The translations under genes were made by a program, and so were the position numbers. From Myxococcales bacterium (GTDB lineage: Bacteria > Myxococcota_A > Bradymonadia > UBA7976 > UBA1532), in the NCBI GenBank assembly GCA_020633435.1, contig JACKDP010000001.1:517359-581358 (forward strand): a stretch of 64,000 nt of DNA, given 5' to 3'. Below, one piece after another: positions 13,393-55,501 of the stretch (its first letter is position 1; every line of letters starts with the position of its first letter). The notes under the pieces were generated by a model. The model saw only the letters and a list, made by a program, of their open reading frames with translations. It did no database searches and had not been told where the DNA came from.

Positions 13393-13652
13393 GGGGTCTT
13401 CTTCTCCGCACAGGTGTGGCGACAGTCGGCGACGATGGCCTCCCAGGCCCGCGCCTGCATCTGGGACTGCTCCAGGCAGTCTCGCACGCACGGGCTCTCC
13501 GCCGGATCCCCGGGCTGCGGCAGCGACGCGGTGACGGGCGCGGGCGGCGGCGCGGCGGGCGCCGCTTCCGTGGCGGGCGGCGCGCTCTGGCAGCCCGGCG
13601 AGGCCAGCAGGATCAGGGAAAAAGGCAGCGAAATCGGAGCGTTAGCGCGCAT
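13389..13652 (-). CDS. small Cys-containing secreted protein
   Basis: Signal-peptide-like N-terminus (LILLASPGC), four Cys; stop overlaps rubredoxin GTG (GTGA). Confidence 0.4.

Positions 13653-14627: not shown

Positions 14628-14631
<4 letters not shown>
13642..14631 (-). CDS. lipoprotein with PAPSPSE tandem repeats
   Basis: In-frame tail of ORF 13642..17130 from MMRSLTQALGAILIASLALVAC (lipobox); six PAPSPSE repeats; ATG overlaps stop of the sigma-54 activator. Confidence 0.6.
14020..14150. repeat. 21-bp tandem repeat (about 6 copies) encoding the PAPSPSE repeats
   Basis: cggctccgacgggctgggcgc repeated head-to-tail. Confidence 0.8.
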
Positions 14632-18482
<3,851 letters not shown>

Positions 18483-18590
18483 GGACTCGGTTCCAGGTCG
18501 GTGCTAGACCACAGATGCCGTCGGCGCGCCGGCGGCTGCGCAGGCCCGCGGGCCGGCGCCGTGGGTAACCTGGAACCGCCCGGGGGCGCA

Positions 18591-32579: not shown

Positions 32580-32646
32580 GGGCCCTCCAGGCGACAAGGG
32601 GCCGCGAGGTAGCACAGGCGCGGCCGGGCCGGGAAGCCCCGCCGCC

Positions 32647-34812
32647 TCACTGGATGATGATGCACCGCCCGTTGAGGCACTCCCGCGAGATGGGACACCG
32701 CGGCCCGCCGCCGCAGAGGCACTGCCCCGCCACGCAGGTGTCCGACCGGAGGTCGCACCCCAGCTCGAAGCCGTCGCCCTCGTCGACCGTGCCGTCGCAG
32801 TCGTCATCGGCGTTGTTGCAGTCCTCGCCCGAGGGCCCCCGCCCGGAGCACGCGCCGTAGACGCCATCCCGGCACACCTGCTCGCCTACCGTGCACACGC
32901 CGACGTCCGTCCCGCAGGGCCGCACCAGCGCCTCGTCGGTGCTGCCGTCGCAGTCGTCGTCCACGCCGTTGCAGGTCTCGGCGGGTACCGCGCCGCACTG
33001 CCCGCAGGCGTTCAGCGTGCCCTCGTCGGTCTGCCCGTCGCAGTCGTCATCGGCCCCGTTGCAGATCTCGTCTGGCACCCGGCCACAGGCGCCGCAGGCG
33101 TTCTGCACGCCCTCGTCCGTGCGCCCGTCGCAGTCGTCGTCGTCTCCGTTGCAGGTCTCCTCCGGCACCGCCCCGCAGTCGCCGCAGGCGTTCTGGACGC
33201 CCTCGTCCGTGCGCCCGTCGCAGTCGTCATCGACGCCGTTGCACGCCTCCGCGACGGGCCCCGTCTCGCCCTGGCACGCCCCCCAGCCGCCGCCATCGCA
33301 GGCCTCCTGGCCCTGCCGGCACCGCCCGACGCTGCTCCCGCACGCCCGCACGAGCCCCTCGTCCGTCCGCCCGTCGCAGTCGTCATCAACCCCGTTGCAG
33401 GCCTCCTGCCGCCCCGTCACCTCGCCCTCGCAGGCGCCGTAGCCCCCGCCGACGCAGCGCTGCACGCCCTGCCGGCACCGGCCCACGTCGCTGCCGCACG
33501 CGCGGTCCAGCCCCTCGTCCACGGCGCCGTCGCAGTCCTGGTCGCGCGCGTCGCAGGTCTCGGGCATCGGCCCCACCTGCCGCGCGCAGGCCCCGAACTG
33601 GTGATCCTGGCCGCAAGTCCGCGTTCCGGCTCGACAAATCCCCACGTCGGGCGCCCCCGGCCCCTCGTAGCAGGCCACCGTGTCGCCCGGGGTGCACCGG
33701 CACTGGCCGCCCTCGTCCACCGCGCCGTCGCAGTCGTCATCCTCGCCGTTGCACGCCTCCGGCCCCGGCACCACCGCGCCCTCGCAGCCGGCGCCGCACA
33801 CGGCCAGGCCGGGCCGGCACGCCCCCACCCCCGACGTCCCGTCGGGCCCCGGGTAGCACGGCACCGGCTCATCCACGACGCCGTCGCAGTCGTCGTCCTC
33901 GCCGTTGCACACCTCCACGGCCGCCTCCCCAGCCGCCGCCGTGCAGGCCACCTCGCCCTCCACGCACGCCGTCTCGCCCGCCACCGCGCAGGCCCCGACG
34001 CCGACCTCGCAGGGCTGCCCCACGCCGAAGTCCTCGTCCACCCGGCCATCGCAGTCGTCGTCCAGCCCGTTGCACGCCTCGTCCGTCGGCGCCCCCGGCT
34101 CGCCGTCGCACACGAGCCCGTCCGGCGTGCACCGCGGCCGCCCCTCCCGAGCGCAGGCCCCCACCCCCACCGGGCAGAGCGCCTCCGGATCCAGCACCGC
34201 CTCGTCCGTCCGCCCGTCGCAGTCGTCATCGGCGCCGTTGCAGCGCTCGTCCGCCGGCGGCACCTCCCCCTCGCAGGCCCCGAAGCGCATGGACGGCCCG
34301 CACCGCTGCTCGCCGGCCTGGCAGACGCCCACGCCGGCCTCCCCCGGCGCCCCCGAGAAGCAGGCCTGCCGGGTGCCGGGCTCGCAGGGCGCGCAGTCCA
34401 CCTCGTCCACCCGCCCGTCGCAGTCGTTGTCCACCTCGTCGCAGATCTCGGTGAGCGGCCGCTGGGCCCCCGCGCAGTCCCCCAGCCGGGCGTCCACGCA
34501 GGCGCGGATCCCCGCCCGGCAGATGCCGGTGCCCGCCTCGCTCGGCCCGCACCGCTGGTCGGCGTCCTCGTCCACCTCGCCGTCGCAGTCGTCGTCGAGC
34601 CCGTTGCAGGCCTCGGGCGGGCAGGCCGCCGCGTCGGGCCCCTGGTCCACCGGCGCCGCGTCGGCCACCGCGCCCTGGTCGGCCGGCGCCGGATCGCGCA
34701 CATGCCCCCCGAGCCCGCTGCGGAGCGCGTCGCCATCCGCCGTGCAGCCCGCGACCCAGACCGCCAGCAGGCAAAGCGCCCACCCCCTCCCGCCCCTGCG
34801 CACATCCGTCAC
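32647..34812 (-). CDS. MopE-like Cys-rich repeat lipoprotein
   Basis: Lipobox LLAVWVAGC; at least 14 repeats of CNGxDDDCDGxxDE. GTG start chosen at 34812 (GGGAG 7 nt upstream); 34803 is also possible. Confidence 0.7.
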   Translation of the reverse strand: MTDVRRGGRGWALCLLAVWVAGCTADGDALRSGLGGHVRDPAPADQGAVADAAPVDQGPDAAACPPEACNGLDDDCDGEVDEDADQRCGPSEAGTGICRAGIRACVDARLGDCAGAQRPLTEICDEVDNDCDGRVDEVDCAPCEPGTRQACFSGAPGEAGVGVCQAGEQRCGPSMRFGACEGEVPPADERCNGADDDCDGRTDEAVLDPEALCPVGVGACAREGRPRCTPDGLVCDGEPGAPTDEACNGLDDDCDGRVDEDFGVGQPCEVGVGACAVAGETACVEGEVACTAAAGEAAVEVCNGEDDDCDGVVDEPVPCYPGPDGTSGVGACRPGLAVCGAGCEGAVVPGPEACNGEDDDCDGAVDEGGQCRCTPGDTVACYEGPGAPDVGICRAGTRTCGQDHQFGACARQVGPMPETCDARDQDCDGAVDEGLDRACGSDVGRCRQGVQRCVGGGYGACEGEVTGRQEACNGVDDDCDGRTDEGLVRACGSSVGRCRQGQEACDGGGWGACQGETGPVAEACNGVDDDCDGRTDEGVQNACGDCGAVPEETCNGDDDDCDGRTDEGVQNACGACGRVPDEICNGADDDCDGQTDEGTLNACGQCGAVPAETCNGVDDDCDGSTDEALVRPCGTDVGVCTVGEQVCRDGVYGACSGRGPSGEDCNNADDDCDGTVDEGDGFELGCDLRSDTCVAGQCLCGGGPRCPISRECLNGRCIIIQ

Positions 34813-34924
34813 GACAGCACTCCCAAGCCTCCGCGCCCCATGGTATCGCTCGCCCGACTCTTTGCCACGGGTCGCGGGTCCGGTACCTTGGGCCCCCACC
34901 CCCAGGCCCCATGGAGGCGAGCAC

Positions 34925-36016
34925 GTGCAGCTCGGGGACGTCTTCGAGCAGGCCGAGGCGGCCGCCGCCCCCGCGGCCCCCCGCCGCCCCCGGCGCTGGC
35001 GCCGCTGGCTGGCCGCCGCCGCCGCGCTCGCCCTGGGCGGCGCCCTCTGGCGCCACGGCCCCGGCGTCGCCCTCGCCGAGCCCGGCGACCTGCTCGTGCT
35101 GACGAACGACACCGGCCTCGACCTCTTCGGCCCGCCCGTCGAGGTGGTCGTGGGCGGCGACACCCCGGTCTTCTACGTGCCCGTGGCCCGCCACGCCTAC
35201 GTGCTCAGCCCGCGCCCCCGCGTGCCCGACCCCGTCCGCCTCACCGCCCTCTCGGCGGAGGGCGTGCCCGTCACGCTGGTGGACACCGCCGTCACGTACC
35301 GCGTCGACCGCGAGGACGCCGGCCTCGTCTTCACCACCCTCGGCGTCGACGCCGCCACCTGGGACGCCCACGCCCGGGCCGCCCTCGCCGCCTGCTGGAG
35401 CGAGGCCATCGCCGCCCGCGGCGCCGGCTGGCTGGCCCGCGAGACGCCCGTGAGCCTGCTGCCCAGCGTGCAGGAGGCCCTGCGCACCCGGCTCAAGCCG
35501 TTGACTTTGCAGGAGATTCGCCCGCCCACCTGGTCCATCGCCCCCGAGCTGCGCGCCGCCCTCGAGGCCGAGGCCGAGGCCGACGCCGCCGAGGCCGCCG
35601 ACGAGAAGGCCCGCACCGAGGCCGAGGCCCAGCGCGCCCTGCGCCGCCAGGCCACCGAGCAGCAGGCCGGCCGGCCTCGGCGCCGCCGGGCCGACGGCCG
35701 CGCCGCCATCGAGGCCGCCCGCACCCGGGCCGCCGAGCGCCTCGCCTGGCCCGCCAGACCATCGCCGACGCCGCCGCCGTGGCCGAAGTCGAGCGCGAGG
35801 GCCTGCTGCGCCGCGCCGAGGCCATCCAGGCCCGCGCCCCCCTCGAGGCCGAGGCCATGAAGGCCCGCGTCGACGCCCTGCGCCAGGACGGCCCGGCCTT
35901 GCTGGACCACCTCATCGCCACCCGCATCCTGCCCCAGCTCGCCCGCGTGCGGGCCGGCCGCCCGGCGCCGCCCGCCGCCCCGCGTCCGCCCCGTCCGCCG
36001 CCCCGGAGAGCGCGCC
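34925..36016 (+). pseudogene. HflK-like SPFH/band-7 gene with apparent frameshift(s)
   Basis: GTG 34925 with GGAGG RBS; SPFH-like sequence in one frame, then the sensible reading continues in another frame from about 35750; 3' end uncertain. Confidence 0.4.
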
Positions 36017-36933: not shown

Positions 36934-37512
36934 ATGGCCCGCACCCCCTCGACCATGATCGCCCTGGGCACCCCCTGCCCCGACTTCGCCCTCCCCGACA
37001 CCGACGGCCGCACCGTCCGCCGCGACGACTTCGCCGACGCCCCGGCCCTGCTCGTCATGGTCCTCTGCAACCACTGCCCCTTCGTCGTGCACCTGCGCAG
37101 CGCCCTCGCCGCCTTCGGCCGCGAGTACCAGGCCCGCGGCCTCGCCATCGTGGCCCTCAACGCCAACGACGCCGACGCCTACCCCGCCGACGCCCCCGCC
37201 CAGATGCCCGCCGAGAAGGCCAGCGCCGGCTACACCTTCCCCTACCTGCACGACGCCACCCAGACCACCGCCCGCGCCCTCGGCGCCGCCTGCACCCCTG
37301 ACTTCTTCCTCTACGGCCCTGACCGCACGCTCATCTACCGCGGCCAGTTCGACGCCAGCCGCCCCGGCAACAGCGAGCCCATCACCGGCCAGGACCTGCG
37401 CGCCGCCTGCGACGCGGCGCTGGCGGGGGTGGAAGTGAGCGCCGAGCAGTGGCCGAGCCTGGGCTGCAACATCAAGTGGAAGCCGGGGAACGAGCCCTCA
37501 TATTTCGGGTAG
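36934..37512 (+). CDS. thioredoxin-fold (redoxin-family) protein; 3' end is the element insertion site
   Basis: CxxC motif LCNHCPF; last codons ...NIKWKPGNEPSYFG overlap the left att repeat. Confidence 0.7.
   Translation: MARTPSTMIALGTPCPDFALPDTDGRTVRRDDFADAPALLVMVLCNHCPFVVHLRSALAAFGREYQARGLAIVALNANDADAYPADAPAQMPAEKASAGYTFPYLHDATQTTARALGAACTPDFFLYGPDRTLIYRGQFDASRPGNSEPITGQDLRAACDAALAGVEVSAEQWPSLGCNIKWKPGNEPSYFG
37467..37496. repeat. attL: 30-bp direct repeat, left copy
   Basis: caacatcaagtggaagccggggaacgagcc, 29/30 identical to 53289-53318. Confidence 0.8.
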
Positions 37513-39545: not shown

Positions 39546-39749
39546 GTGCCCGAGTACCTGACCATCGACGAGGTTTGCGAGCTTCTCCAGTTGGGCAAGC
39601 GCACCGTGTACGAGCTTGCCCGGACGGGCCGCTTGCCGGGCGCCGCGAAGATCGGCGGCCAGTGGAGGGTCAACCGGGCCAAGCTCGCCGCCTGGCTGGA
39701 GGCCGGGGGCGAGTTCGCCGCGGTCGAGGGGGGCGAGCGCGACGAATGA
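39546..39749 (+). CDS. excisionase/AlpA-family HTH DNA-binding protein
   Basis: LTIDEVCELLQLGKRTVYELARTGRLPGAAKIGGQWRV; stop overlaps the SNF2 start (ATGA). Confidence 0.65.
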   Translation: MPEYLTIDEVCELLQLGKRTVYELARTGRLPGAAKIGGQWRVNRAKLAAWLEAGGEFAAVEGGERDE

Positions 39750-42595
39750 CGACCCCCTACCATGCGCAGTTCTGGGCCTACACGTTGACCGTACAGGGGT
39801 CGCCGGACTCGGTGGACGGCCTGTCGCGGGCCATCTCGAACGCCCGCGTAGACCTGAACCCGCACCAGGTAGACGCAGCCCTGTTCGCCCTCAAGTCGCC
39901 GCTGTCGAAGGGCGTCATCCTCGCCGACGAGGTGGGCCTCGGGAAGACCATCGAGGCCGCCCTGGTGATCTCGCAGCGATGGGCGGAGCGCCGCAGGCAC
40001 ATCCTCGTCGTGGTGCCCGCCTCGCTGCGGAAGCAGTGGCAGCAGGAGTTGTGGGAGAAGTTCTTCATCCCCTCGGTGGTGCTGGAGCGCAAGTCGTGGA
40101 CGCGGCTCCAGGCCGAGGGCAAGCCCAACCCCTTCGACCTCGGCGATCAGGTCGTCATCTGCTCCTACTACTTCGCCGCCAAGCACCGGGAGGCCGTGGC
40201 CCACGTCCCGTGGGATCTGGCCGTCATCGACGAGGCCCACCGGCTGCGAAACGTCTACAAGAAGGGCAACAAGACGGCGAAGGCCCTGTCCGCGGGCCTG
40301 GCCCACGCCACGAAGCTCCTGCTGACCGCGACGCCGCTCCAGAACTCGCTGATGGAGTTGTACGGCCTCGCCAGCGTCATCGACCCGCACCTGTTCGGTG
40401 ACCCCATCTCCTTCCGCGAGCAGTTCGTCCGCGAGGCGGACGAGGGCGTGCGGAACCGGCTGTTGAAGCAGCGCATCGCCGAGGTCTGCCAGCGCACCCT
40501 GCGGCAGCAGGTGCTGGAGTACGTCCGGTTCACGGAGCGCATCCCGGTGACGCAGGAGTTCTTCGCCAGCGACGCCGAGCAGCGGCTCTACGACGAGGTG
40601 TCCGAGTACCTCCGCCGCGACACCCTGTACGGCCTCCCGTCGGCCCAGCGGACGCTGATGACGATGGTGCTGCGGAAGCTGCTGGCCTCGTCGTCCTTCG
40701 CCATCGGCGGCACCCTCGACGGCCTGTTGTACCGCCTCCGGCAAGTGCAAGAGGACGTGCGCAAGGGCACCGCGGTCGCCCTGCACGATGCCGTGGAGGA
40801 CGACTTCGAGACGGTGGACGAGATCGAGGACGACTGGGAGGAGGACGAGGCCACCGACGCCAACGGCGACGACATCGACCCCGCCCTGCTGGCCGACGAG
40901 ATCGCCATCATCGAGGCGTGCTCCAAGCTCGCCGCGGGCATCCATTCCAACGCCAAGGGCGACGCCCTCCTGCGGGCACTCGCGCAGGCGTTCGAGCAGG
41001 CCGAGGCCGTGGGCGCCGCGAAGAAGGCGGTGGTGTTCACGGAGTCCCGGCGCACGCAGGACTACCTGTACCGGCTGCTGACCGCGAACGGCTACGAGGG
41101 CCGCGTCGTGATGATCAACGGCAGCAACAACGACGAGGCCGCCAAGGCCGTCTACGCGGAGTGGATGACCCGGCACGCGGACGACGGGGTGCCCACCGGC
41201 GCCCGCGCCGTCGATGTCCGGGCCGCCATCACCGAAGCGTTCAAGACCGACGCCACCATCCTGCTGGCGACCGAGGCCGCCGCGGAAGGCGTCAACCTCC
41301 AGTTCTGCTCCCTGGTCTTCAACTACGACTTGCCCTGGAACCCCCAGCGGGTCGAGCAGCGGATCGGGCGCTGCCACCGCTACGGCCAGACCCATGACGT
41401 GGTGGTCGTCAACTTCGTCAACGAGCGCAACGCCGCCGACCGCCGCGTCCTCGACCTGCTGTCCGAGAAGTTCAGGCTGTTCGAGGGGGTCTTCGGCGCC
41501 TCCGACGAGGTGCTCGGCGCCATCGAGTCCGGCGTGGACATCGAGCGGCGCATCGCGGCCATCTACCAGGGCTGCCGCACCGCCGAGGACATCGCCGCCG
41601 CCTTCGACGACCTGCGGGCCGACCTCGACGAGCAGATCACCGCGCAGATGAGCGAGACGCGGCAGCGCCTGCTCGACCACTTCGACGAGGACGTGCAGGC
41701 CCGCCTCCGCGTCCACCGCGACCTGGCCCAGGCGTCGCTCGACGAGAGGGGCCGGATGCTGTTGAACCTCACCCGGCACGAGCTTGGGGACGACGCCTCC
41801 TTCGCACCTGACCGGCCCCGGTTCGAGTACCACGGCACCGCGGCTCGTCGCGGGTGGTACAGCCTCGACTGGAAGGCGGCGGACGCCGAGGGCCTGGTCT
41901 TCTACCGCATCGACCACCCCCTCGCGCAGGGCATCGTCGAGCAGGCCCGCCAGCGACAGCTTCCCGTGCAGCACCTGGCCTTCGACTACGGCGCCTACGG
42001 CACGTCGGTCGCGGTGCTGGAGCCGTACATCGGTCGCCGGGGCTGGCTGGCGTGCAGCCTGCTGACGGTGAACTCGGTGGCCGACGAGCAGTTCGTCGTC
42101 CTGGCCGCGGTGACCGACGACGGCGAGGTGCTCGACGCCGAGTGGTGCCGACGCCTCATGCGCATCGGAGCCGCCGCCGAGGGAACGCCCGAGGCGCCCG
42201 CGGATCTGGAGCCCGCGGTCACCGGCCAGGTCGAAGGCCACCTGCGCGACGTGGAGGCCCGCAACGGGCGCTACTTCGACGCCGAGGTGTCGAAACTCGA
42301 CCGCTGGTCAGACGACCTCAAGCTCGGCCTGGAGCGGGAGTTGAAGGACTTGGACGCCGAGATCCGGGCGAAGCGCAAGGAGTCCGCGGTCGCCATCTCA
42401 CTGGCGGACAAGCTCACGGCGCAGCGGGACATCAAGGCGCTGGAGCAGCGCCGGAACCGCAAGCGGCGGGATCTGTACGAGGAACAGGACAAGATCGACG
42501 AGCAACGGGCAGCACTCATCGACGGGATCGAGCGGCAGCTTCGCACCACACATGCGGTGCAGCGCCTGTTCACCGTCCGGTGGAGCATCCGATAG
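39746..42595 (+). CDS. SNF2-family helicase
   Basis: 949 aa: LADEVGLGKTIEA (motif I), VIDEAHRLRN (DEAH), LLLTATPLQNSL, C-terminal helicase motifs and coiled-coil tail. Confidence 0.85.
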   Translation: MTTPYHAQFWAYTLTVQGSPDSVDGLSRAISNARVDLNPHQVDAALFALKSPLSKGVILADEVGLGKTIEAALVISQRWAERRRHILVVVPASLRKQWQQELWEKFFIPSVVLERKSWTRLQAEGKPNPFDLGDQVVICSYYFAAKHREAVAHVPWDLAVIDEAHRLRNVYKKGNKTAKALSAGLAHATKLLLTATPLQNSLMELYGLASVIDPHLFGDPISFREQFVREADEGVRNRLLKQRIAEVCQRTLRQQVLEYVRFTERIPVTQEFFASDAEQRLYDEVSEYLRRDTLYGLPSAQRTLMTMVLRKLLASSSFAIGGTLDGLLYRLRQVQEDVRKGTAVALHDAVEDDFETVDEIEDDWEEDEATDANGDDIDPALLADEIAIIEACSKLAAGIHSNAKGDALLRALAQAFEQAEAVGAAKKAVVFTESRRTQDYLYRLLTANGYEGRVVMINGSNNDEAAKAVYAEWMTRHADDGVPTGARAVDVRAAITEAFKTDATILLATEAAAEGVNLQFCSLVFNYDLPWNPQRVEQRIGRCHRYGQTHDVVVVNFVNERNAADRRVLDLLSEKFRLFEGVFGASDEVLGAIESGVDIERRIAAIYQGCRTAEDIAAAFDDLRADLDEQITAQMSETRQRLLDHFDEDVQARLRVHRDLAQASLDERGRMLLNLTRHELGDDASFAPDRPRFEYHGTAARRGWYSLDWKAADAEGLVFYRIDHPLAQGIVEQARQRQLPVQHLAFDYGAYGTSVAVLEPYIGRRGWLACSLLTVNSVADEQFVVLAAVTDDGEVLDAEWCRRLMRIGAAAEGTPEAPADLEPAVTGQVEGHLRDVEARNGRYFDAEVSKLDRWSDDLKLGLERELKDLDAEIRAKRKESAVAISLADKLTAQRDIKALEQRRNRKRRDLYEEQDKIDEQRAALIDGIERQLRTTHAVQRLFTVRWSIR

Positions 42596-42603
42596 GAGCG
42601 GGG

Positions 42604-44427
42604 ATGTCGAAGAAGACGAAGCTGGAACTGACCTGGATCGGCAAGGACAAGCGGCCCCGCCTGGAGCCGCGCATCCTGCTCGAAGATCCCGAACTGAGCT
42701 ACGCCGCCGACCATCGGGTTCGGCAGGGCGACATCTTCGACAACATGCTGATCCACGGAGACAACCTGCTGGCTTTGAAGGCGCTGGAGCAGGACTTCAC
42801 CGGCGCCTTCAAGTGCGTCTACATCGACCCTCCGTTCAACACCCAGCAGGCGTTTGAGCACTACGACGATGGCGTGGAGCACTCGGTCTGGCTGTCACTC
42901 ATGCGCGAGCGCCTCTCCATCGTCCACCGGCTCATGCACCCCGAGGGGACGCTGTTCGTCCACATCGACGACAACGAGCTTGGCTACCTGATCGTCCTCC
43001 TCGACGAGGTGTTCGGGCGCACCAACCGCGTGTCCATCGTCACATTCAAGCAGGGCTCGGCGACCGGCCACAAGGCCATCAACCCCGGCTGCGTGACGAC
43101 CACGAACTTCGTGCTGATGTACGCCAAGGACAAGGCAGCCTGGAAGCCGCGGAGGGTCTTCACGGCTAGGGAGCGAGACAATCGCTACAACCAGTTCATT
43201 CCGAACATCGGCGACCACCACTCCAAGTGGCGAATCGTGACGCTGATGACCGCCTTCGCCGCCAGCCAGGGGGTCACGGAGACACAGGCCAGGGGTCTGG
43301 CTCGCAAGCAGCCCGACCAACTGGACGAGTTCGTGAAGGACAACGGGCCGAGCGTGGTGCGTCTCGCAAGGCCGTCCTACGACGCCGTCAGCAAGGCTGC
43401 CCAGGCGCTCATCGACGAGTCGAACGCGAACCCCGAAGTGGTGTTCCACCTCCCGCGGGAGGGGCACAAGGACTTCTACTTCATCCGGGGCGAACGAATC
43501 CTGTTCTACAAGGACAAGCTCAGGGAGATCGACGGGCAGTACGTTGCGGGTGAGCCGCTCACGACGCTCTGGGACGACCTCCTCTCCAACAACTTGCACA
43601 ACGAAGGTGGGGTCAGCTTCCCCAAGGGGAAGAAGCCCGAAGCCCTGATCAAGAGGGTCATCGACCTGTCCACCGAGCCCGGTGACTGGGTGCTCGACTC
43701 GTTCGCAGGCTCGGGCACGACGGGGGCGGTGGCCCACAAGGCCGGTCGAAGGTGGGTGATGGTCGAACTCGGTGACCACTGCCATACCCATGTCCTTCCC
43801 CGGCTCCGAGCGGTTATTGACGGGGCCGATTCCAGCGGGAGCACGCAGGCAACCCGATGGAAAGGCGGCGGCGGCTTCCGCTTCTGCCGCCTCGCGCCCT
43901 CCCTACTGGAGGAGGACAAGTGGGGCAACTGGGTCATCAACCGGGCCTACAACAAGGAGATGCTGGCGGAGGCCATGTGCAAGATCGAGGGCTTCCGCTA
44001 CGAGCCGAGCCCGACCATCTTCTGGATGCACGGCCAGTCCACCGAGACGGACTACCTCTACGTCACCACGCAGACCCTGACCCACGAGCAGTTGCAGGTC
44101 ATCAGCGCGGAGGTCGGTGACGAGCGCACGTTGCTCATCTGCTGCTCGGCCTTCCGAGCGCGGCTCGACCAGTTCCCGAACCTCACGGTGAAGAAGATCC
44201 CCGCAGCGGTGCTCGAACGCTGCGAGTGGGGCAAGGACGACTACTCGCTGAACGTCCAGACGGTCATGGGAGAGGAGCCCGAGGCGCCCGAGCCTGAACC
44301 CGACCAGTCCGCGGGCGCCACCGTGCCGCCGCCATCGTCGAAGAAGCGCAAGGGCCGCAAGCCGAAGATGCAGGAGTTGCCGCTGTTCGCCGCGGCCCAC
44401 CATGGCAAGTCGGGAGGTGACCAGTGA
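42604..44427 (+). CDS. Type III R-M Mod-like N6-adenine DNA methyltransferase
   Basis: DPPF motif (CVYIDPPFNT) precedes the SAM motif (VLDSFAGSGTTG). Confidence 0.85.
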   Translation: MSKKTKLELTWIGKDKRPRLEPRILLEDPELSYAADHRVRQGDIFDNMLIHGDNLLALKALEQDFTGAFKCVYIDPPFNTQQAFEHYDDGVEHSVWLSLMRERLSIVHRLMHPEGTLFVHIDDNELGYLIVLLDEVFGRTNRVSIVTFKQGSATGHKAINPGCVTTTNFVLMYAKDKAAWKPRRVFTARERDNRYNQFIPNIGDHHSKWRIVTLMTAFAASQGVTETQARGLARKQPDQLDEFVKDNGPSVVRLARPSYDAVSKAAQALIDESNANPEVVFHLPREGHKDFYFIRGERILFYKDKLREIDGQYVAGEPLTTLWDDLLSNNLHNEGGVSFPKGKKPEALIKRVIDLSTEPGDWVLDSFAGSGTTGAVAHKAGRRWVMVELGDHCHTHVLPRLRAVIDGADSSGSTQATRWKGGGGFRFCRLAPSLLEEDKWGNWVINRAYNKEMLAEAMCKIEGFRYEPSPTIFWMHGQSTETDYLYVTTQTLTHEQLQVISAEVGDERTLLICCSAFRARLDQFPNLTVKKIPAAVLERCEWGKDDYSLNVQTVMGEEPEAPEPEPDQSAGATVPPPSSKKRKGRKPKMQELPLFAAAHHGKSGGDQ

Positions 44428-47400
44428 ACCGCCTCGTCAACACCATCTCGGGTCGTCTGAGCCTCCGGCCCCCGCAGCGCCAGTCGCTGGAGATCCTCGA
44501 CCGCATCTGCGAGATCGCTGACCCGACCAAGGCGACCGATCTCGCAACCGCGCTCGGGATCATCAAGTCCGAGTACCCGTCGGTCACCGACTTCGAGCGG
44601 GACTTCCCCTCGCTGTGCTTCGCCCTCGCCACCGGCGTCGGCAAGACCCGGCTCATGGGCGCCTTCATCAGCTACCTCTACCTGACCAAGCGAAGCCGCC
44701 ACTTCTTCGTGCTGGCGCCCAACCTGACCATCTACAACAAGCTGATCGCCGACTTCACCCCCGGCACGCCCAAGTACGTCTTCCAGGGGATCTCGGAGTT
44801 CGTGACCGCCCCGCCGGTCATCATCACCGGCGACAACTACGAGAGCGGCGTCGGCGTCCGAGAGGAGGCCCGGCGCCAGATGGGCCTGTTCCGGCCCGGC
44901 GGCGAGGATGCCGTCCACATCAACGTCTTCAACATCAGCAAGTTCAACAAGGACACGGGGGGCAGGAAGGGCTCGCCCAGGATGCGGCGCCTGTCGGAGT
45001 ACATCGGTGAGAGCTACTTCGACTACCTGGCCGGGCTCGACGACCTGGTGGTGCTCATGGACGAGGCCCACCGCTACCGCGCCGACGCGGGTATGAAGGC
45101 CATCAACGAGTTGAAGCCCATCTTGGGCCTGGAGTTGACGGCGACCCCCTTCACCGAGTCGGCGAAGGGGCCGGTGGCCTTCGGCAACGCCATCTACGCC
45201 TACTCGCTGGCCGAGGCCATCGTGGACGGGTTCGTGAAGGAGCCCGCGGTCGCCACCCGCAAGGACTTCGACGCCAGCCAACTCGACGACGCGAAGTTGG
45301 AACGCATCAAGCTGGAGGACGGCGTGCGCTTGCACGAGCAGGTCAAGGCCGACCTCCAAGCCTACGCCGCCAACACCGGGCGCCCCTACGTCAAGCCGTT
45401 CATGCTGGTCATCGCCCGCGACACGACGCACGCCTCGGCCCTGATCGACCTGTTCAAGTCCGAGACGTTCTTCGAGGGGCGCTACGCCGACCGCGTGATC
45501 GAGGTTCACTCGGCCCTCAAGGGCGAGGAGAAGGAGGAGACGGTTGAGCGGCTGCTGGCCGTGGAAGACCCCGCCGAGCAGACGGAGATCGTCATCCACG
45601 TCAACATGCTCAAGGAGGGGTGGGACGTAACGAACCTCTACACCATCGTCCCGCTGCGGGCCGCCAACGCCCGCACCCTCATCGAGCAGTCCATCGGTCG
45701 CGGCCTGCGGCTGCCCTACGGCAAGCGTGTCCGCAAGTACGGCCTGCCCCCCACCCACCCTGCCGACCGGCTCACCATCGTCGCCCACGACAAGTTCCAA
45801 GAGATCGTGGACGAGGCCAACCGCGGTGACTCCATCATCCGCCGCATCGACACCATCTACATCGACCCGGAGGAGGCCGCCGACGCTCCGAAGCCGGTCG
45901 AGGTGCCCCCGCTGGTCGAGCAGATTCTTGGCGGAGCCGACCGGCCTACGGTGCCGGGCCTCGGCCCCGCCCCCGCGGGTGACCCGGCCCAGGGCACCGC
46001 CCCCACCCTGCCGACCAAGAAGACGCCGACGTTCCTGACGCCCACGGCGAAGGCGGTGGCGAAGGCGACGCTGACGGCGATCACCAAGAAGACCACGTTG
46101 CCGTCGGCGAAGACGCTTCTGCAACCGGAGCAGCAGAAGAAGCTGGTCGAGGAGGTGAAGGCGCAACTTCCCGACCAGCAGGAGCTACCGGGCATCGAGT
46201 CGGAGATCGAGGAGGTCGTCAAGCAGGCCACCGAAGCCTACGTTGACCTCTCCATCGACATCCCCGAGGTGACCGTCGTGCCCACCGGCGAGGTCACCAT
46301 CGTCTACGCCGACTTCGACCTCGACACGTCCAAGCTGCCTGCGCTCCAGCCCGTCGAGCGGGACATCTACATCCAACACCTGGCGAGCCACGAGCAGCAG
46401 CAGTTGTCTTCCGGCGGTGGTGGTGTCGGCTACGAGCGGCGCCTGGAAGATCACGTTGTCCGGGCGCTCATCGACTTCGACGACGTGGACTACGACGGCA
46501 ACGCCGACCTGCTCTACAAGCTCGCGGGCCAGATGGTCGCCCACCTCCAGGGCTACCTGCCCGACGAGGAGGCCGTGAAGAACGTGCTGGTCTACTACCA
46601 GTCGCGGATCGGCAACCTCGTCCACGGCCAGATGCTGGCCCACCGGCACGAGTTGACGACCGGCTACGAGGTGAAGGTGCTGTCCGGGCACCGTCCGCTC
46701 CAGCCCTCGGTGATCAAGCTCAAGCCGAGCGAGTCCCCCCGGAACTTCCGGGCGCCGGTGGACGACAAGCGCCGCATCCCGCAGATGGTGTTCGGCGGCT
46801 TCTCGAAGTGCTTGTACCCGCTCCAGAAGTTCCACTCGGACTCGGAGCGCCGGTTCGCGGTGCTGCTGGAGATGGACAAGGCCGTGCAGAAGTGGGTGAA
46901 GCCTGCGCGGGCGAACTTCCAGATCGTCCTCAAGGGCGGCTCGCTCTACGAGCCGGACTTCGTGGTCGAGGCCGACGACGCCTTCTACATCGCCGAGGTC
47001 AAGGCCGAGGGCATGGTGCAGGAGGCCGACGTGCTGGCGAAGGCCGAGGCCGCCGCGGTGTGGTGCAGGTCGGCGACGCAGGAGGGGGCGGGCGCCAAGC
47101 CCTGGCACTACCTGCTCATCCCCGCGGACAAGATCGCCGAGAACGCCTCGTTGGCGTGGCTGGCGAAGCAGTACGAGCACAAGGCCAGCGCCCCCGCCGA
47201 GGTCGTGTCCGAGGACGCGGGCGCCAAGGTGCTGCCGTTCAAGAAGCTGGAGGGCACGGAGATCAGGCCCTTCGAGAACTGCGTGCCGCTCTACGCCGAC
47301 CTCAGGATCGCCGCGGGCCGCTTCGGCGAGGAGCTGGCCGTGGACGCGGTGCCCCAGCAGGGCGAGGTGGAGAACCCCGAGGACTACGAGTGGGTCGCCT

Positions 47401-47744
47401 ACCGGGGGAGTTCCCGGCCCCGTCGCGGCCTGTTCGTAGCCCAGGTGGTCGGCGAGTCCATGAACAAGCGCATCCCCAACGGCGCCTGGTGCGTGTTCAA
47501 CCTCGAACACGGGGCCGATGGCGAAGGTGAGATCGTCCTCGCCCGGCACGACGAGATCCACGACGGCGACCTCGGCCAGTTCACCGTGAAGTTCTACCAG
47601 CGCGAGGTGCTCGACGACGACGGCGTGCGGATCACGCTGCGGCCCTCGTCCAGCGACCCGCAGTTCAAGAAGCCCATCGTGCTGGAGAACCTGGCCGAGG
47701 GCGACCTGCGGATCGTGGCCGAGTTCGTCGAGGTGCTGCGGTAG
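44424..47744 (+). CDS. Type III Res-like helicase-endonuclease fused to a LexA/UmuD-like S24 domain
   Basis: 1106 aa: Walker A (ATGVGKTRL), DEAH (VLMDEAHRY), PD-(D/E)xK-like nuclease motif (EPDFVVEADDAFYIAEVKAEG), then about 150 aa resembling an S24 peptidase (GESM, TVKF); GTG overlaps Mod stop. Confidence 0.8.
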   Translation: MNRLVNTISGRLSLRPPQRQSLEILDRICEIADPTKATDLATALGIIKSEYPSVTDFERDFPSLCFALATGVGKTRLMGAFISYLYLTKRSRHFFVLAPNLTIYNKLIADFTPGTPKYVFQGISEFVTAPPVIITGDNYESGVGVREEARRQMGLFRPGGEDAVHINVFNISKFNKDTGGRKGSPRMRRLSEYIGESYFDYLAGLDDLVVLMDEAHRYRADAGMKAINELKPILGLELTATPFTESAKGPVAFGNAIYAYSLAEAIVDGFVKEPAVATRKDFDASQLDDAKLERIKLEDGVRLHEQVKADLQAYAANTGRPYVKPFMLVIARDTTHASALIDLFKSETFFEGRYADRVIEVHSALKGEEKEETVERLLAVEDPAEQTEIVIHVNMLKEGWDVTNLYTIVPLRAANARTLIEQSIGRGLRLPYGKRVRKYGLPPTHPADRLTIVAHDKFQEIVDEANRGDSIIRRIDTIYIDPEEAADAPKPVEVPPLVEQILGGADRPTVPGLGPAPAGDPAQGTAPTLPTKKTPTFLTPTAKAVAKATLTAITKKTTLPSAKTLLQPEQQKKLVEEVKAQLPDQQELPGIESEIEEVVKQATEAYVDLSIDIPEVTVVPTGEVTIVYADFDLDTSKLPALQPVERDIYIQHLASHEQQQLSSGGGGVGYERRLEDHVVRALIDFDDVDYDGNADLLYKLAGQMVAHLQGYLPDEEAVKNVLVYYQSRIGNLVHGQMLAHRHELTTGYEVKVLSGHRPLQPSVIKLKPSESPRNFRAPVDDKRRIPQMVFGGFSKCLYPLQKFHSDSERRFAVLLEMDKAVQKWVKPARANFQIVLKGGSLYEPDFVVEADDAFYIAEVKAEGMVQEADVLAKAEAAAVWCRSATQEGAGAKPWHYLLIPADKIAENASLAWLAKQYEHKASAPAEVVSEDAGAKVLPFKKLEGTEIRPFENCVPLYADLRIAAGRFGEELAVDAVPQQGEVENPEDYEWVAYRGSSRPRRGLFVAQVVGESMNKRIPNGAWCVFNLEHGADGEGEIVLARHDEIHDGDLGQFTVKFYQREVLDDDGVRITLRPSSSDPQFKKPIVLENLAEGDLRIVAEFVEVLR

Positions 47745-49990: not shown

Positions 49991-50629
49991 TCAGCGGGCT
50001 TCGGCGACGGCGACTTCTGGCCCACCCACCGGACGGGCCTCGGCGAGCCTGCGTCGCAGGGTCGTCCGCGGGAGGCCGAGCATGTCGGCGACCTCGCGGA
50101 CGCTGTGCCCTTGGGCGATGAGGGCCTGGGCTGCACGAAGGTCGAGGCCACGCCGCGGGCGCCCGAACTTCACGCCACGCTCGCGGGCGCGAGCGACGCC
50201 TGCCTGGACGCGCTCTTGGATCAGGGCGTGCTCAAGTTCGGCGACCACCGCGGCGAGCGTGAACAGCGCCTTCCCGAGGGCGGTGGTCGTCTCGATGTTC
50301 TCCCTGACGGACACGAACTCGACCCTGCAACGGCGGAACTCGTCGAGGGCCTCCAGCAGGTGCTGGGTCGAGCGGGCGAACCTGTCGAACCGCCACACCA
50401 TCACCACGTCCACCTCGGCGCCGCGGACGGCGGCCATGAGGCCGTCCAGGCCGGGCCGGGCCTCGGTGGTGCCGGACACGCCGTCGTCGATGAACTCGTG
50501 AACGACCTGCCAGCCGCGCTGCGCGGCCACTCGGCGAAGGTCATCAAGCTGGAGCCCCACGTCCTGCCCGTGCCCGGCGGTGCTCACCCTGGCGTACAAC
50601 GCCGCCCGCGTCTTCCGGCTCGTCGCCAT
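49991..50629 (-). CDS. serine recombinase (resolvase/invertase family)
   Basis: AALYARVSTAGHGQD (catalytic Ser region), C-terminal HTH. Confidence 0.85.
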   Translation of the reverse strand: MATSRKTRAALYARVSTAGHGQDVGLQLDDLRRVAAQRGWQVVHEFIDDGVSGTTEARPGLDGLMAAVRGAEVDVVMVWRFDRFARSTQHLLEALDEFRRCRVEFVSVRENIETTTALGKALFTLAAVVAELEHALIQERVQAGVARARERGVKFGRPRRGLDLRAAQALIAQGHSVREVADMLGLPRTTLRRRLAEARPVGGPEVAVAEAR

Positions 50630-51587: not shown

Positions 51588-52072
51588 CCGAACATGCGCA
51601 GCTCGACATCCCCGCCTTGGTGGAGGAGATCAACGCCGCCGAGGACGACCCGATGTGGAAGGCGTGGACGAAGGATCGCCTGCGGCTCCAAGACCAACTT
51701 CACGAGCTTCGCGCCGTCCGAGATGCTCTCGCCCGCAAGCTCCGGGCATTGGCGCCCACGACGCCGGGCGGGGACAAGAGGCCCATGACCCGGCGGGAGC
51801 AGCGGATGGCGATGGGCGGCGGCGGCCTGTGGCCGCTGGCCCAGGCTGCGGAGATGCTGCCCATGAAGGACAACGAGGCGAGGGGCTGGCTGCGCAACGA
51901 AGGGCTCGTCGGCGACCTGGCCGGGCGTGAGGTCGTGCATTGGGGCCGCGTGCTCGACGCGCCCTACGCCACGAAGGATGAGGCGCCGTCGGTGCCTGCG
52001 AAGCAGGAGACACGGCGCCGGAAGCCGCTCCCGCGGGTGCGCCTCGGTGGCTCGTCGGGGGCGTCACGATGA
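51584..52072 (+). CDS. hypothetical protein
   Basis: ATG overlaps the previous stop; stop overlaps the integrase start. Confidence 0.4.
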   Translation: MTEHAQLDIPALVEEINAAEDDPMWKAWTKDRLRLQDQLHELRAVRDALARKLRALAPTTPGGDKRPMTRREQRMAMGGGGLWPLAQAAEMLPMKDNEARGWLRNEGLVGDLAGREVVHWGRVLDAPYATKDEAPSVPAKQETRRRKPLPRVRLGGSSGASR

Positions 52073-53202
52073 GCCCTCCAAGGAGTGCGCGACCCAAGCC
52101 CTTCTCGCTCGACATGATCAAGTGCCGGATCGTCCGCGGGCCGCACCCGGACGACCCGAACCGTTGGTACTGGCAGGCGGTCACCTACGGAGACGGTGAG
52201 CAGCGCACCATCTGGACGGGTTGGGGGTCGGTCGAGGAGGTGAAGGCCGCGCTGGCGCCGTTGCTGATGGGGATGCAGGCGGCCCCGTCGCGCCGTGAAG
52301 ACCGGGTGTCCACTGTGCAGGATCTCCTTGAGGTCTGGTTGGCGTGGCAACTCGGCCAACCGAACCTGAGCGAAGGGCGCAAGCTCAACTCGAAGAAGGA
52401 GGCAGAGCACGTCGCCGCCGTGATCGGTGATGTGCTCATCCTGCGGCTCGACACGACGACCCTGACGGAGTACCAGCGCGTGCGGCTGCGCGAGGGGGCC
52501 TCGACCGGCGTGATCCGCAACGAGATCAGCACCGTGATCCAGGCGTGGAACTGGGGCGGGGAGCGTGGGCTCGCACCGGAGCGGCGGCTGCGACGCCCCC
52601 GTTTGCAGCACAAGTCTGTGCGGAACGACTACGTTCCCGACCTGGTGGAGTTCTGGAAGGCCGTGGACGCGCTGCCCGACTCCAGACCCTGGGCTCGCAC
52701 CATGCTCCTCCTGCTGGGTGCGACGGGGGCGAGGCCAAGCGAGATCGCCGCCCTGACCTGGGAGGACATCCACTGGCGACGCCGTACCGTCCGTCTGGAC
52801 GGCAAGACCGGGAAGCGCCTGGCAGTCGTGAGCCAAGAGGTCTTGGACGAGTTGGCGCCGCACCGCCCCGACCCCGCGACTGGCCGCGTCCTCTCCGTGA
52901 GCTTGACCACGGCACGGGTGGACATCCGCAAGATCCTGCGGGACGCCTGCGTTGCGGCCAACGTGACGCCGTTCCTCCCGATGTCCATCCGCAAGATGGT
53001 CGAGAACGCGATGTTCGACGCTGGGGCCGACCCCGGCGTCGTCTCCCGGCAGCTTGGGCACACGCCGGAGGTGTCCTTGAGGCACTACCGCAGGGCGAAG
53101 TCGGCTCGCGTGGACGAGGTTCTCGCTCGTGCGGGCATCGGCACCAGGCCGGACGGCAACGTCGTGTCGCTGGCCGAGCACCGCAAGGCCAAGGACTCGT
53201 GA
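52069..53202 (+). CDS. tyrosine-type site-specific integrase
   Basis: Catalytic-domain motifs (LLGATGARPSEIAALTWEDI; LGHT...SLRHY) with the Tyr near the C-terminus. Confidence 0.85.
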   Translation: MSPPRSARPKPFSLDMIKCRIVRGPHPDDPNRWYWQAVTYGDGEQRTIWTGWGSVEEVKAALAPLLMGMQAAPSRREDRVSTVQDLLEVWLAWQLGQPNLSEGRKLNSKKEAEHVAAVIGDVLILRLDTTTLTEYQRVRLREGASTGVIRNEISTVIQAWNWGGERGLAPERRLRRPRLQHKSVRNDYVPDLVEFWKAVDALPDSRPWARTMLLLLGATGARPSEIAALTWEDIHWRRRTVRLDGKTGKRLAVVSQEVLDELAPHRPDPATGRVLSVSLTTARVDIRKILRDACVAANVTPFLPMSIRKMVENAMFDAGADPGVVSRQLGHTPEVSLRHYRRAKSARVDEVLARAGIGTRPDGNVVSLAEHRKAKDS

Positions 53203-53288: not shown

Positions 53289-53318
53289 CAACATCAAGTG
53301 GAAGCCGGGCAACGAGCC
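53289..53318. repeat. attR: 30-bp direct repeat, right copy
   Basis: caacatcaagtggaagccgggcaacgagcc, followed in frame by the likely original gene tail (...NEPTTNLYA, stop). Confidence 0.8.
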
Positions 53319-53406: not shown

Positions 53407-55497
53407 TCAGGACGTGAGGCGGTCGAAAGCCTGCTGGCGGGCCAGGAGCGTAGGCGACGGGGGCTCGCCCGCGAGGCGGTCGAAGCGGTCAGTGAGCAAC
53501 TTCTGCATCAGCTCGGTATGCGCCGCCGGCAGGCGCTCGAAGTGGGGCCAGAGGAGGTCCAGCGCCTCGTCCGCGGCGGCGCGGGCCTCGGCGGCCCGGC
53601 CGAGGGCAGCGAGGACGTCGCCGCTGCTGTCCATCGCGTTTGCAAGGTCAGGCTCGAACGCGTCCGGACGCGACGACGCAAGACGGCGATAGATACCCAC
53701 CGCCTCCGCCGTCGCTGACAACGCCTCCTCAAGACGACCCAACGATGAGATGTCACCGCCCAGGTTGTTGAGGCTCATGGCAAGGTCAGGCTCGAACGCG
53801 TCCGGACGCGACGACGCAAGACGTCGATACACGTCCACCGCCTCCGCCGTCGCTGACAACGCCTCCTCAAGACGACCCAACGATGAGAGCCGATTGCCCA
53901 GGTTGACCAGGCTCATGGCAAGGTCAGGCTCGAACGCGTCCGGTCGCGACGACGCAAGATGCCGATACACGTCCACCGCCTCCGCCGTCGCTGACAACGC
54001 CTCCTCAAGACGACCCAACGATGAGAGCCGATTGCCCAGGTTGACCAGGCTCATGGCAAGGTCAGGCTCGAACGCGTCCGGACGCGACGACGCAAGATAC
54101 CGATACACCTCCACCGCCTCCGCCGTCGCTGACAACGCCTCCTCTCGACGACCCAACGACGAGAGGTCAACGCCCAGGTTGTTCAGGCCACCCGCAAGGT
54201 TCGGCTCGAACGCTTCAAGACGCGACGACGCAAGACGGCGATAGATACCCACCGCCTCCATCGTCGCTGACAATGCCTCCTCAAGACGACCCAACGATGA
54301 GAGTCGATTGCCCAGGTTGTTCAGGCTCATGGCAAGGTCTGGCTCGAACGCGTCCGGACGCGACGACGCAAGACGGCGATCGAGACCCACCGCCTCCGTC
54401 GTCGCTGACAACGCCTCCTCAAGACGACCCAAAGATGAGAGCCGATTGCCCAGGTTGTTCAGGCTCGTGGCGAGGTCAGGCTCAAACGCGTCTGGACGCG
54501 ACAGTGCAAGACGGCGATAGATACCCACCGCCTCTGTCGTCGCTGACAACGCCTCCTCTCGACGACCCAACGAGGAGAGCCCAATGCCCAGGTCGGTCAG
54601 GCTCATGGCAAGATCGGGTTCGAACGCGTCCGGACGCGACGACGCAAGACGGCGATAGATACCCACCGCCTCCGCCGTCGCTGACAACGCCTCCTCTCGA
54701 CGACCCAACGACGCAAGGTCACGGCCCAGGCTGGTCAGCGCCCTCGCAACGTCTGCGTCCGGGCGTGCCGACGCGAGGCCTCTGTAGGACCCCACGGCTT
54801 CCGTTGACGCCGATAACGCTTCTGCGACCTCGTTCGCCAGGCCCATGTGCCCACTCCGCACCAAGGCCGCCAGCGCGCCAACCATCGCGTCGAAGCGCGC
54901 CGGATCCTCGGGAGCAAGCGCGAGCGCCGCTCGCGCCCGTCGCTCGGCGAGCTCCACCTCGGCAGGCGAGGCCCCATCTGACCGTTGCACGGGCGAAGTA
55001 ACATCGGGCTGCGAGACAGGAACCGGCGCGACCATCGGCTCAACAAGCAGGGTGTTGATAGACCAGAGATCGGGCGCAGCCAGCCGCACTACCGGCCGGG
55101 CCCACGCGGGCATGGCCACGACCAGGGCGTGCAGCCCGGATCGGCGCAGCGGCTCTCGGTGCTCGTTCCAGCGTTGTGCCGCGTTGAACCATGCGGTTCG
55201 CCAATCCTGCTCCGGACCAAAGGCCTCGCACCAGACCACGCCCCCTCTGGGCGCCGCCAGGATGCGACCGAGTGCGTCGCTCAGGTCCCCCGGATGCTCG
55301 CAGAGAACGGTCTCGATCGGCCAGCCACGGGCACCCGCCAGCGCCATCGTTCGGGCCCGAAGAATTCGAGCTGGAAAGCGGTCTGCCGCGACCACCGTCG
55401 CGATGACGAACCGATCTGCGAAATCCAGGAGATCACTGAGCAATTCCCAGGGCCGCTCCTCCAGGAGCGGCTGCGCTGCGAGGTGGTCTTCGGCCAC
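53407..55497 (-). CDS. TPR-like repeat protein (about nine 46-aa repeats), partner of the upstream NTPase
   Basis: Repeat unit RPDAFEPDLAMSLNNLGNRLSSLGRLEEALSATAEAV.VYRRLASS; GTG start 4 nt after the NTPase stop (ORF extends to 55554). Confidence 0.65.
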   Translation of the reverse strand: MAEDHLAAQPLLEERPWELLSDLLDFADRFVIATVVAADRFPARILRARTMALAGARGWPIETVLCEHPGDLSDALGRILAAPRGGVVWCEAFGPEQDWRTAWFNAAQRWNEHREPLRRSGLHALVVAMPAWARPVVRLAAPDLWSINTLLVEPMVAPVPVSQPDVTSPVQRSDGASPAEVELAERRARAALALAPEDPARFDAMVGALAALVRSGHMGLANEVAEALSASTEAVGSYRGLASARPDADVARALTSLGRDLASLGRREEALSATAEAVGIYRRLASSRPDAFEPDLAMSLTDLGIGLSSLGRREEALSATTEAVGIYRRLALSRPDAFEPDLATSLNNLGNRLSSLGRLEEALSATTEAVGLDRRLASSRPDAFEPDLAMSLNNLGNRLSSLGRLEEALSATMEAVGIYRRLASSRLEAFEPNLAGGLNNLGVDLSSLGRREEALSATAEAVEVYRYLASSRPDAFEPDLAMSLVNLGNRLSSLGRLEEALSATAEAVDVYRHLASSRPDAFEPDLAMSLVNLGNRLSSLGRLEEALSATAEAVDVYRRLASSRPDAFEPDLAMSLNNLGGDISSLGRLEEALSATAEAVGIYRRLASSRPDAFEPDLANAMDSSGDVLAALGRAAEARAAADEALDLLWPHFERLPAAHTELMQKLLTDRFDRLAGEPPSPTLLARQQAFDRLTS
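53510..54890. repeat. 138-bp tandem repeats (about 9 copies), coding
   Basis: The motif gtcaggctcgaacgcg recurs at 138-bp spacing; central copies nearly identical. Confidence 0.8.
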
Positions 55498-55501
55498 CGG
55501 G

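Follow-up and report, generated by a model that had tools for sequence, protein, structure and literature searches.

A Type III restriction-modification operon with an SNF2 partner and a LexA-like tail on its Res subunit, carried on an integrative element of a Myxococcales bacterium

In a stretch of 64,000 nucleotides from a Myxococcales bacterium (assembly GCA_020633435.1, contig JACKDP010000001.1, positions 517,359 to 581,358; hereafter called the window) we analyzed an operon of four genes, which encodes a small helix-turn-helix (HTH) protein, an SNF2-type ATPase and the Mod and Res subunits of a Type III system of restriction and modification (R-M). The operon is of a known, widespread and mechanistically unexplained kind, namely Type III R-M with an SNF2 partner, and is not a new defence system. 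The part worth following up is the fusion of Res to a LexA/UmuD-type S24 domain together with the wider pattern in which this tail occurs, which may tie restriction to the DNA-damage response. We consider it likely that the operon is a helicase-associated Type III R-M system borne on a mobile element, in which the S24 tail of Res is hypothesized to serve as a safety fuse triggered by DNA damage.

All four genes lie on the + strand. The HTH gene (39546–39749, GTG start) encodes an excisionase-type HTH_17 protein of 67 amino acids and its stop codon overlaps the SNF2 start in the ATGA at 39746–39749. The SNF2 gene (39746–42595) encodes an SNF2/RapA-like ATPase of 949 amino acids with Walker A lysine K67 and a DEAH box at residues 162–165. 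Its stop codon TAG (42593–42595) is followed by the 8 nt GAGCGGGG and then by the ATG of the Mod gene at 42604. The Mod gene (42604–44427) encodes a beta-class amino-methyltransferase of 607 amino acids, and its stop codon overlaps the start of the Res gene in the GTGA at 44424–44427. The Res gene (44424–47744) encodes a protein of 1106 amino acids comprising a superfamily 2 (SF2) motor, a PD-ExK nuclease and the S24 tail. Purine-rich ribosome-binding sequences precede the starts of SNF2, Mod (GGAG) and Res (GGGAGG). An earlier sequence-only reading had described these open reading frames as a translationally coupled operon, almost certainly co-expressed; the positions, the shared strand, both overlaps and the 8-nt gap were all verified, and the overlapping junctions uphold this description.

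Pfam matches of all four proteins were above the gathering scores. A codon-position GC script gave a third-position GC of 0.86–0.95 in three of the four frames, which fits real genes since the DNA here has a GC content of 65–75%. The Mod frame was not passed by this filter, and its call rests on the Pfam and PADLOC matches. A terminator scan showed no terminator-like site on the + strand within the operon. A sigma-70 promoter scan, which is uninformative in DNA of 70% GC, found no promoter upstream of it.

Mod matched the Pfam family N6_N4_Mtase with 134 bits and the PADLOC model MTase_III (PDLC03636) with 619 bits over model positions 1–556 of 575. Its DPPF motif (residues 75–78) stands before FAGSG (residues 367–371). 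Res matched ResIII of Pfam with 72 bits and REase_III of PADLOC (PDLC03648) with 734 bits. Its motor shows a GVGKT Walker A motif (K74) and a DEAH box at residues 213–216, and alignment of homologues placed the nuclease motif P844-D845...E858-V-K860 at 46950–47003 (+). K74, DEAH, D845, E858 and K860 are invariant across 48 homologues. The pair thus shows the sequence features of Type III membership, with motif IV before motif I in Mod and, directly after mod, a Res combining a motor with a C-terminal PD-(D/E)xK. The motifs named in the sequence-only reading (DPPF before FxGxG in Mod, DEAH and a PD-(D/E)xK-like motif in Res) are present, and together with the two PADLOC scores they confirm the last two genes as a Type III Mod/Res pair. 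The profile searches proposed at that time recovered the expected Pfam domains in all four proteins, with the PADLOC models in agreement for Mod and Res.

Like EcoP15I and EcoPI, the pair has a Mod of the beta class in which DPPF precedes FxGxG and a Res made of SF2 motor and C-terminal PD-ExK nuclease, and mod stands before res and overlaps it. It differs from them in the additional SNF2 gene, HTH gene and S24 tail, and its Res has no sequence match to EcoP15I detectable in the PDB: a sequence search of the PDB returned only a weak match to Type I HsdR and did not detect the Res of EcoP15I. The model of full-length Res was modest (predicted local distance difference test, pLDDT, 67; predicted template modelling score, pTM, 0.42) and was left out of the fold search. 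Between motor and C-terminal half, at residues ~480–560, Res has a linker rich in proline, threonine and alanine, which was modeled with a pLDDT below 50. Res and SNF2 both belong to very large families, homologue searches yielding at least 8,000 candidates for each; among these, proteins identical to the two of the window are attributed in public annotation to a Myxococcales metagenome-assembled genome. Members of the family of this Mod/Res pair are also found in E. coli and Salmonella, where SNF2, Mod and Res are 44–53% identical to those of the window.

SNF2 matched the Pfam domains SNF2-rel_dom (117 bits) and Helicase_C (64 bits), and the nearest solved relative of its core is RapA. The C-terminal region, from about residue 655 to 949, is specific to the family. 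A scan of one genome per species with an alignment of this SNF2 family gave 80 loci, which represent nearly every major phylum of bacteria; Mod and Res were then sought by tblastn within 12 kb, for which 50 loci had enough downstream DNA. Mod/Res of the same family as in the window were found beside SNF2 in 24 of these 50 informative loci and a second Type III family (PADLOC 03634/03647) in another 8, so that 32 of 50 link SNF2 to Mod/Res. The probes for these two families gave no match at the remaining 18. Two of the 18 were examined, and both carry a third Type III family (03646/03654), in one case with SNF2 located after Res rather than before Mod. Since Mod/Res of three families are found at its loci, the SNF2 family is a dedicated neighbor of Type III R-M across three Mod/Res lineages.

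Using a different Mod family as query we found the Type III locus of E. coli NCTC86 (L095), in which an SNF2 protein of 963 amino acids is followed by Mod and Res. This SNF2 is 43% identical to that of the window over residues 2–948 (808 bits), i.e. over the full length including the C-terminal region. Mod and Res of NCTC86 come from another family, and only their catalytic motifs align to those of the window. Being the Type III locus of NCTC86 with a layout that matches the published one, L095 is probably Eco86II. For Eco86II an 'additional helicase-like ATPase' of unknown function, present in more than 500 genomes, was reported, and the modification was determined to be N4-methylcytosine (m4C) (Murray et al. 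2021, PMC8259958). Eco86II and BspHIV (PMC8259958) share with the window the order SNF2-type ATPase, Mod, Res, an ATPase lacking a nuclease motif, and their wide distribution. The window operon differs in that its Mod and Res belong to the other Type III family (PADLOC 03636/03648) and in the addition of the HTH gene and the S24 tail. Eco86II makes m4C; the DPPF motif of the window Mod occurs in both m4C and N6-methyladenine (m6A) enzymes. The operon also shows the hallmark of the helicase-associated Type III group: an SF2 helicase-like ATPase gene without nuclease motif, 5' of mod and homologous to the Eco86II neighbor.

The operon had been proposed from its sequence as a candidate undescribed defence system. 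This was not sustained, as the order SNF2, Mod, Res is recurrent and published (Murray et al. 2021, PMC8259958). The arrangement of three of the four genes was thus largely known already; this does not extend to the Res-S24 fusion. The related statement that the operon does not fit a plain Type III system stands in part: the Res-S24 fusion is real and conserved, whereas SNF2 is a recurrent Type III partner and the HTH gene an occasional extra (directly upstream of SNF2 in 9 of 88 loci).

Another explanation is that the four genes form a multi-gene defence system resembling DISARM, ARMADA or MADS rather than a Type III R-M system. It draws on a score of 675 bits for SNF2 against DrmD models and on the match of the HTH protein to the MAD1 model. 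However, the 675 bits (NCBIfam DrmD_b) are below the curated cut-off of 950 and cover the ATPase core only, equivalents of DrmA, DrmB (DUF1998), DrmC, YprA or mad2–8 are not present, and the neighbors of the SNF2 family are Type III Mod/Res of three families. We therefore hold this explanation to be highly improbable.

The individual systems were rejected as follows. With class 1 DISARM the operon shares an SNF2 ATPase core related to DrmD beside an amino-methyltransferase, but the C-terminal region of SNF2 lies outside the DrmD model and none of the open reading frames of the element encodes a DrmA helicase, DrmB or DrmC (PLD), in accordance with the earlier view that this is not DISARM. ARMADA is defined by ArmC, a helicase of the YprA family, together with DUF1998 and in some cases a UvrD-like ArmD; the locus contains none of these. 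MADS is an operon of eight genes; MAD6–8 are mandatory, and the methyltransferase MAD2 has a bipartite site. It was rejected on gene content, since the sole mad model among the matches listed was mad1 for the HTH protein, SNF2 and Mod being judged among the best 25 PADLOC families. Matches to the helicase models of Hma and BREX were confined to the SNF2 core that these proteins share.

The small HTH protein itself matched HTH_17 of Pfam with 69 bits and TIGR01764 with 58 bits. Against MAD1 it reached 38 bits in PADLOC and 53 bits in NCBIfam, where the cut-off of 80 was not reached. Some E. coli and Salmonella loci likewise have an overlapping HTH gene upstream. In E. coli LS45 (L093, 13808–14008) the NCBI pipeline labels the HTH gene before SNF2 as 'MAD1' in an operon that lacks the rest of MADS. 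What the MAD1 model recognizes therefore seems to be a general type of HTH protein at the head of operons, not one specific to MADS. In MADS, deletion of mad1 barely affects defence. As the HTH gene is optional and the loss of mad1 of little effect, a regulatory role fits, and the protein is most likely a regulator of the operon comparable to the controller proteins of R-M systems and to the largely dispensable MAD1. In Lujinxingia vulgaris (L001), the closest cultured relative of the operon, the place of HTH_17 upstream of SNF2 is taken by a gene for an HTH_3 + Peptidase_M78 protein (3836–4894). GmrSD-type and Mrr-type Type IV restriction genes follow the operon there in a defence island (13444–19122).

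In most homologous loci 0.8–6 kb of other genes are located between SNF2 and Mod. These genes encode ietA/ietS, Abi, AIPR, AAA_21 with DUF4276 (PARIS type), HerA, SMC-like ATPases, DUF1016/YhcG nuclease, Bro-N, HTH_3 with Peptidase_M78, and SLFN_AlbA_2 with Fic-like_C; loci with such cargo are L003, L008, L010, L017, L019, L024, L026, L030, L031, L038, L042, L046, L068, L085, L091 and L093. The gap between SNF2 and Mod is a recurrent insertion site for defence and abortive-infection genes, and the window, with SNF2 coupled directly to Mod, is its empty, minimal version. Knowledge of this cargo site should be useful to the field of defence systems.

Two E. coli loci (L084, 7582–18328; L086, 2724–14754) carry ietA/ietS in this gap, between SNF2 and Mod/Res of the window family. 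Their SNF2 proteins are full-length homologues of the window SNF2 with 44% identity, and they are the only such SNF2 genes found beside ietAS-type AAA/S8 genes in E. coli. Such operons were present in 74 of 5,426 genomes. The ietHAS system (Liu-DS4) has been validated experimentally: its SNF2 helicase ietH is essential, ATPase mutants abolish defence and become toxic, and it was found in more than 1.5% of E. coli (PMC13069673). Because gene content and frequency match, ietHAS is probably the front of the SNF2-Type III operon, i.e. its first three genes, and the tested ietH the SNF2 of these E. coli operons. In that paper the helicase is regarded as accessory to ietAS, whereas the window lacks ietA/ietS and couples SNF2 directly to Mod/Res. 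It appears that the SNF2 gene reported as an accessory of ietAS is the conserved Type III partner, which should likewise be useful to the field.

The C-terminal tail of Res (residues 920–1106, 47181–47741, +) was recognized as LexA/UmuD-type S24 from Pfam, motifs and fold. It matched Peptidase_S24 with 28.8 bits at a gathering cut-off of 23.3. Aligned tails placed the predicted cleavage site at A964-G965 (47313–47318, +), the serine at Ser1012 (47457–47459, +) and the lysine at Lys1056 (47589–47591, +). The tail shows the features of S24 proteases, i.e. the Ser-Lys dyad in a GxSM...(T)VK context, the S24 fold, and upstream a site of the kind Ala-Gly or Cys-Gly, here Ala-Gly (RIAA964-G965). The cleavage region of LexA reads ...VGRVAA/GEP. 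An AlphaFold model of the tail by itself had a pLDDT of 73 and a pTM of 0.74. Foldseek matched it best to the cleavable fragment of lambda cI (2ho0, E = 8e-4) and then to UmuD', the matches including UmuD bound to the RecA filament (8gmt, target TM 0.73); S26 signal peptidases ranked after these. A single-sequence phmmer search of the PDB with the tail returned no entry of the LexA family and only spurious matches to repeat proteins. From motifs and model the tail is a complete LexA/UmuD-type S24 module, for which self-cleavage is predicted; in this family the reaction is stimulated by the RecA filament or by high pH. In common with LexA, UmuD and lambda cI it has the Ala-Gly site after VPL..., the serine of GxSM, the lysine of TVK and the fold. 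Unlike these proteins it has no N-terminal repressor domain and instead ends a nuclease-helicase of 920 amino acids, and an insertion of 10–12 residues is found in this clade.

The lengths of the 120 best Res homologues are bimodal: about 96 have 877–939 amino acids and end just past a conserved ...LAKQ(Y/F), while 23 have 1067–1112 and carry the tail. All 23 keep VPLY..[KR][IVA]AAG, GxSM and (F/Y)TVK. Tailed Res proteins form two clades, with 64–100% and about 50% identity to the window. Since Res proteins as close as 80–90% identity exist without the tail, it was gained or lost recently. An independent metagenomic locus (L088) shows the full layout of four genes with the same overlaps and the S24 tail, its Res being 64% identical; L001 has the order SNF2-Mod-Res(S24) and L091 SNF2-cargo-Mod-Res(S24). 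A literature search, which covered few subscription journals, found no description of S24 or LexA-like fusions to restriction or defence enzymes. As far as this search reached, the Res-S24 fusion appears to be conserved and undescribed.

We also searched the tail against 1.84 billion representative proteins and obtained 868 matches at E ≤ 1e-3, of which 299 were at E ≤ 1e-10. The tail occurs on SNF2 helicases, Schlafen-group-3/DUF2075 helicases with or without GIY-YIG, GHKL ATPases, a DUF1998/MZB protein, a ResIII-Helicase_C-DUF3427 helicase, Eco57I + Type_ISP_C enzymes and an MmeI-like enzyme. On these very different proteins it is C-terminal. The proteins P0241–P0390 belong to the same S24 tail subfamily with 35–65% identity. 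Among the representative tails, 121 of the 132 that were aligned retain Ala-Gly, and 109 of the 122 that cover every site retain Ala-Gly, Ser and Lys together; about 10 tails show Ser-to-Ala or Lys-to-Arg changes. The same tail on at least 8 other architectures suggests a general design principle. We propose tentatively that it might be a portable RecA-sensing switch for self-destruction or self-activation, which would have been added repeatedly to dangerous DNA-targeting enzymes, Type III Res and Type ISP/IIG enzymes among them. If so, autoproteolysis and subsequent degradation would be a general means of SOS-coupled restriction alleviation, or would control how mobile defence systems become established, and would stand apart from the Type I/ClpXP paradigm.

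How could the parts of the operon work together? The Type III cycle of EcoP15I is established, and we carry its steps over to this operon by analogy. Mod, probably as a dimer, would read a short asymmetric site and methylate one strand. Res would bind Mod, switch via ATP into a sliding state and cut unmodified DNA where two complexes meet. Type III systems are characterized by hemimethylation at specific sites and by a cleavage that depends on ATP and on two sites in inverse orientation. The SNF2 protein has a RapA-like double-stranded DNA translocase core, and its most likely role is to act upon proteins or complexes bound to DNA, not to cut or methylate. This role is suggested because Eco86II can methylate, and can cleave in vitro, without the SNF2-type ATPase (Murray et al. 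2021, PMC8259958), yet the protein is essential for ietAS.

For the tail we hypothesize a damage-triggered fuse. RecA filaments would arise on DNA damage, of which self-restriction after entry of the element into a host without the methylation is one form, and would stimulate cleavage at Ala964-Gly965 and thereby remove the tail. According to Gao et al. (PMC9926225), LexA, UmuD and cI all dock in the groove of RecA. Cleaved Res would end in ...RIAA, resembling the ...RVAA end of cleaved LexA. ClpXP reportedly recognizes this ...RVAA end. Loss of the cut Res in a ClpXP-type manner could switch restriction off while Mod catches up, and the fuse would shield a naive or damaged host from self-restriction. 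Such protection is a plausible need of an R-M system on an integrative element. The main understood case of host self-protection, after damage or on arrival in an unmethylated cell, is Type I restriction, in which ClpXP degrades HsdR. Self-protection in Type III systems is poorly understood, and a Res with a LexA-like module would connect restriction directly to the SOS signal, a molecular connection that is easy to test.

Some sister loci (L001 and L031) contain HTH_3 + Peptidase_M78, a second kind of damage-responsive protease regulator, which suggests that a DNA-damage input matters for this type of system. The direction of the effect could also be the opposite: the tail may hold Res inactive or locked as a dimer until RecA filaments on damaged or replicating phage DNA trigger its cleavage and free the active nuclease, making restriction inducible by infection. 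The same conserved cleavage machinery would serve this purpose, the tail (residue 920 onwards) adjoins the nuclease domain (residues 843–860), it is found again on numerous toxic proteins that target DNA and may have to be autoinhibited, and M78-type protease-regulator pairs, a kind also present in the sister loci, are known for damage-activated expression of defence. However, Res without the tail is the norm and is presumably active, which means that no release step is required for the core enzyme, and irreversible activation by any host damage would be dangerous for a chromosome that is methylation-protected but hemimethylated. We regard activation by tail removal as unlikely.

Cleavage might also be incidental, the tail acting mainly as a dimerization or RecA-docking module that pairs Res nucleases or recruits the enzyme to RecA-coated DNA. 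The S24 domain of LexA and cI is a dimer interface, and it binds the groove of the RecA filament (PMC9926225); Type III cleavage needs two enzymes to meet. The Ser-to-Ala and Lys-to-Arg tails mentioned above suggest that a non-catalytic role is possible in a minority. Conservation of Ala-Gly, Ser and Lys in 109 of 122 tails, in turn, argues for selection on proteolysis, and a mainly dimerizing or RecA-docking role of the tail seems to us rather improbable.

Several points weigh against the safety-fuse reading of the operon as a whole. The HTH gene is missing from about 90% of loci. The tail is absent in about 96 of the 120 best Res homologues and in all 32 Type III-linked genome loci, and basic function therefore does not require it. 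Compared to LexA the tail has the 10–12 residue insertion, located between the cleavage site and Ser, and the models are moderately confident (pLDDT of 73 for the tail and 67 for full-length Res). Partially purified Eco86II contained no detectable SNF2 protein (PMC8259958), and a physical complex with Mod/Res is therefore hypothetical. Finally, we infer the cleavage of the tail, its dependence on RecA, the off rather than on direction of the effect, and the targeting to ClpXP.

The operon belongs to an integrative element of 15.8 kb, whose insertion site is the 3' end of a host gene for an AhpC/TSA peroxiredoxin. An exact direct repeat of 21 bp, CAACATCAAGTGGAAGCCGGG, is found at 37467–37487 and 53289–53309, with 0 matches expected by chance, and extends to 30 bp with one mismatch. 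The left copy, attL (37467–37496, +), lies inside the 3' end of the AhpC/TSA gene (36934–37512); the right copy, attR (53289–53318, +), just after the gene for a tyrosine integrase (52069–53202, +), and the displaced original 3' end of AhpC/TSA appears to come after attR. Between the repeats we found the operon, a winged-helix protein, an HTH_36 protein, a second HTH_17 protein, a serine recombinase (resolvase; 49991–50629, –), an HTH_3 protein and the tyrosine integrase. The bracketing 21-bp repeat, the resolvase and the integrase agree with the sequence-only reading in placing the operon on an integrative element. A tRNA scan of the window found no tRNA gene, so the element is not tRNA-integrated.

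The GC content of the window is about 75%, with an island of lower GC (65–70%) extending roughly from 37.5 to 60 kb. Just outside attR and still in low-GC DNA (53407–56800, –), genes for a tetratricopeptide repeat (TPR) protein of 715 amino acids and an AAA_16/STAND-like NTPase of 432 amino acids are located. This pair could represent a second island or a separate defence-like pair. To the left of the element, in host DNA of about 80% GC, we found, as would fit a Gram-negative host of the Myxococcota type, genes for a protein with 10 MopE-type copper-binding repeats (32647–35163, –) and for an outer-membrane transporter of the FadL/TodX type (31194–32867, –).

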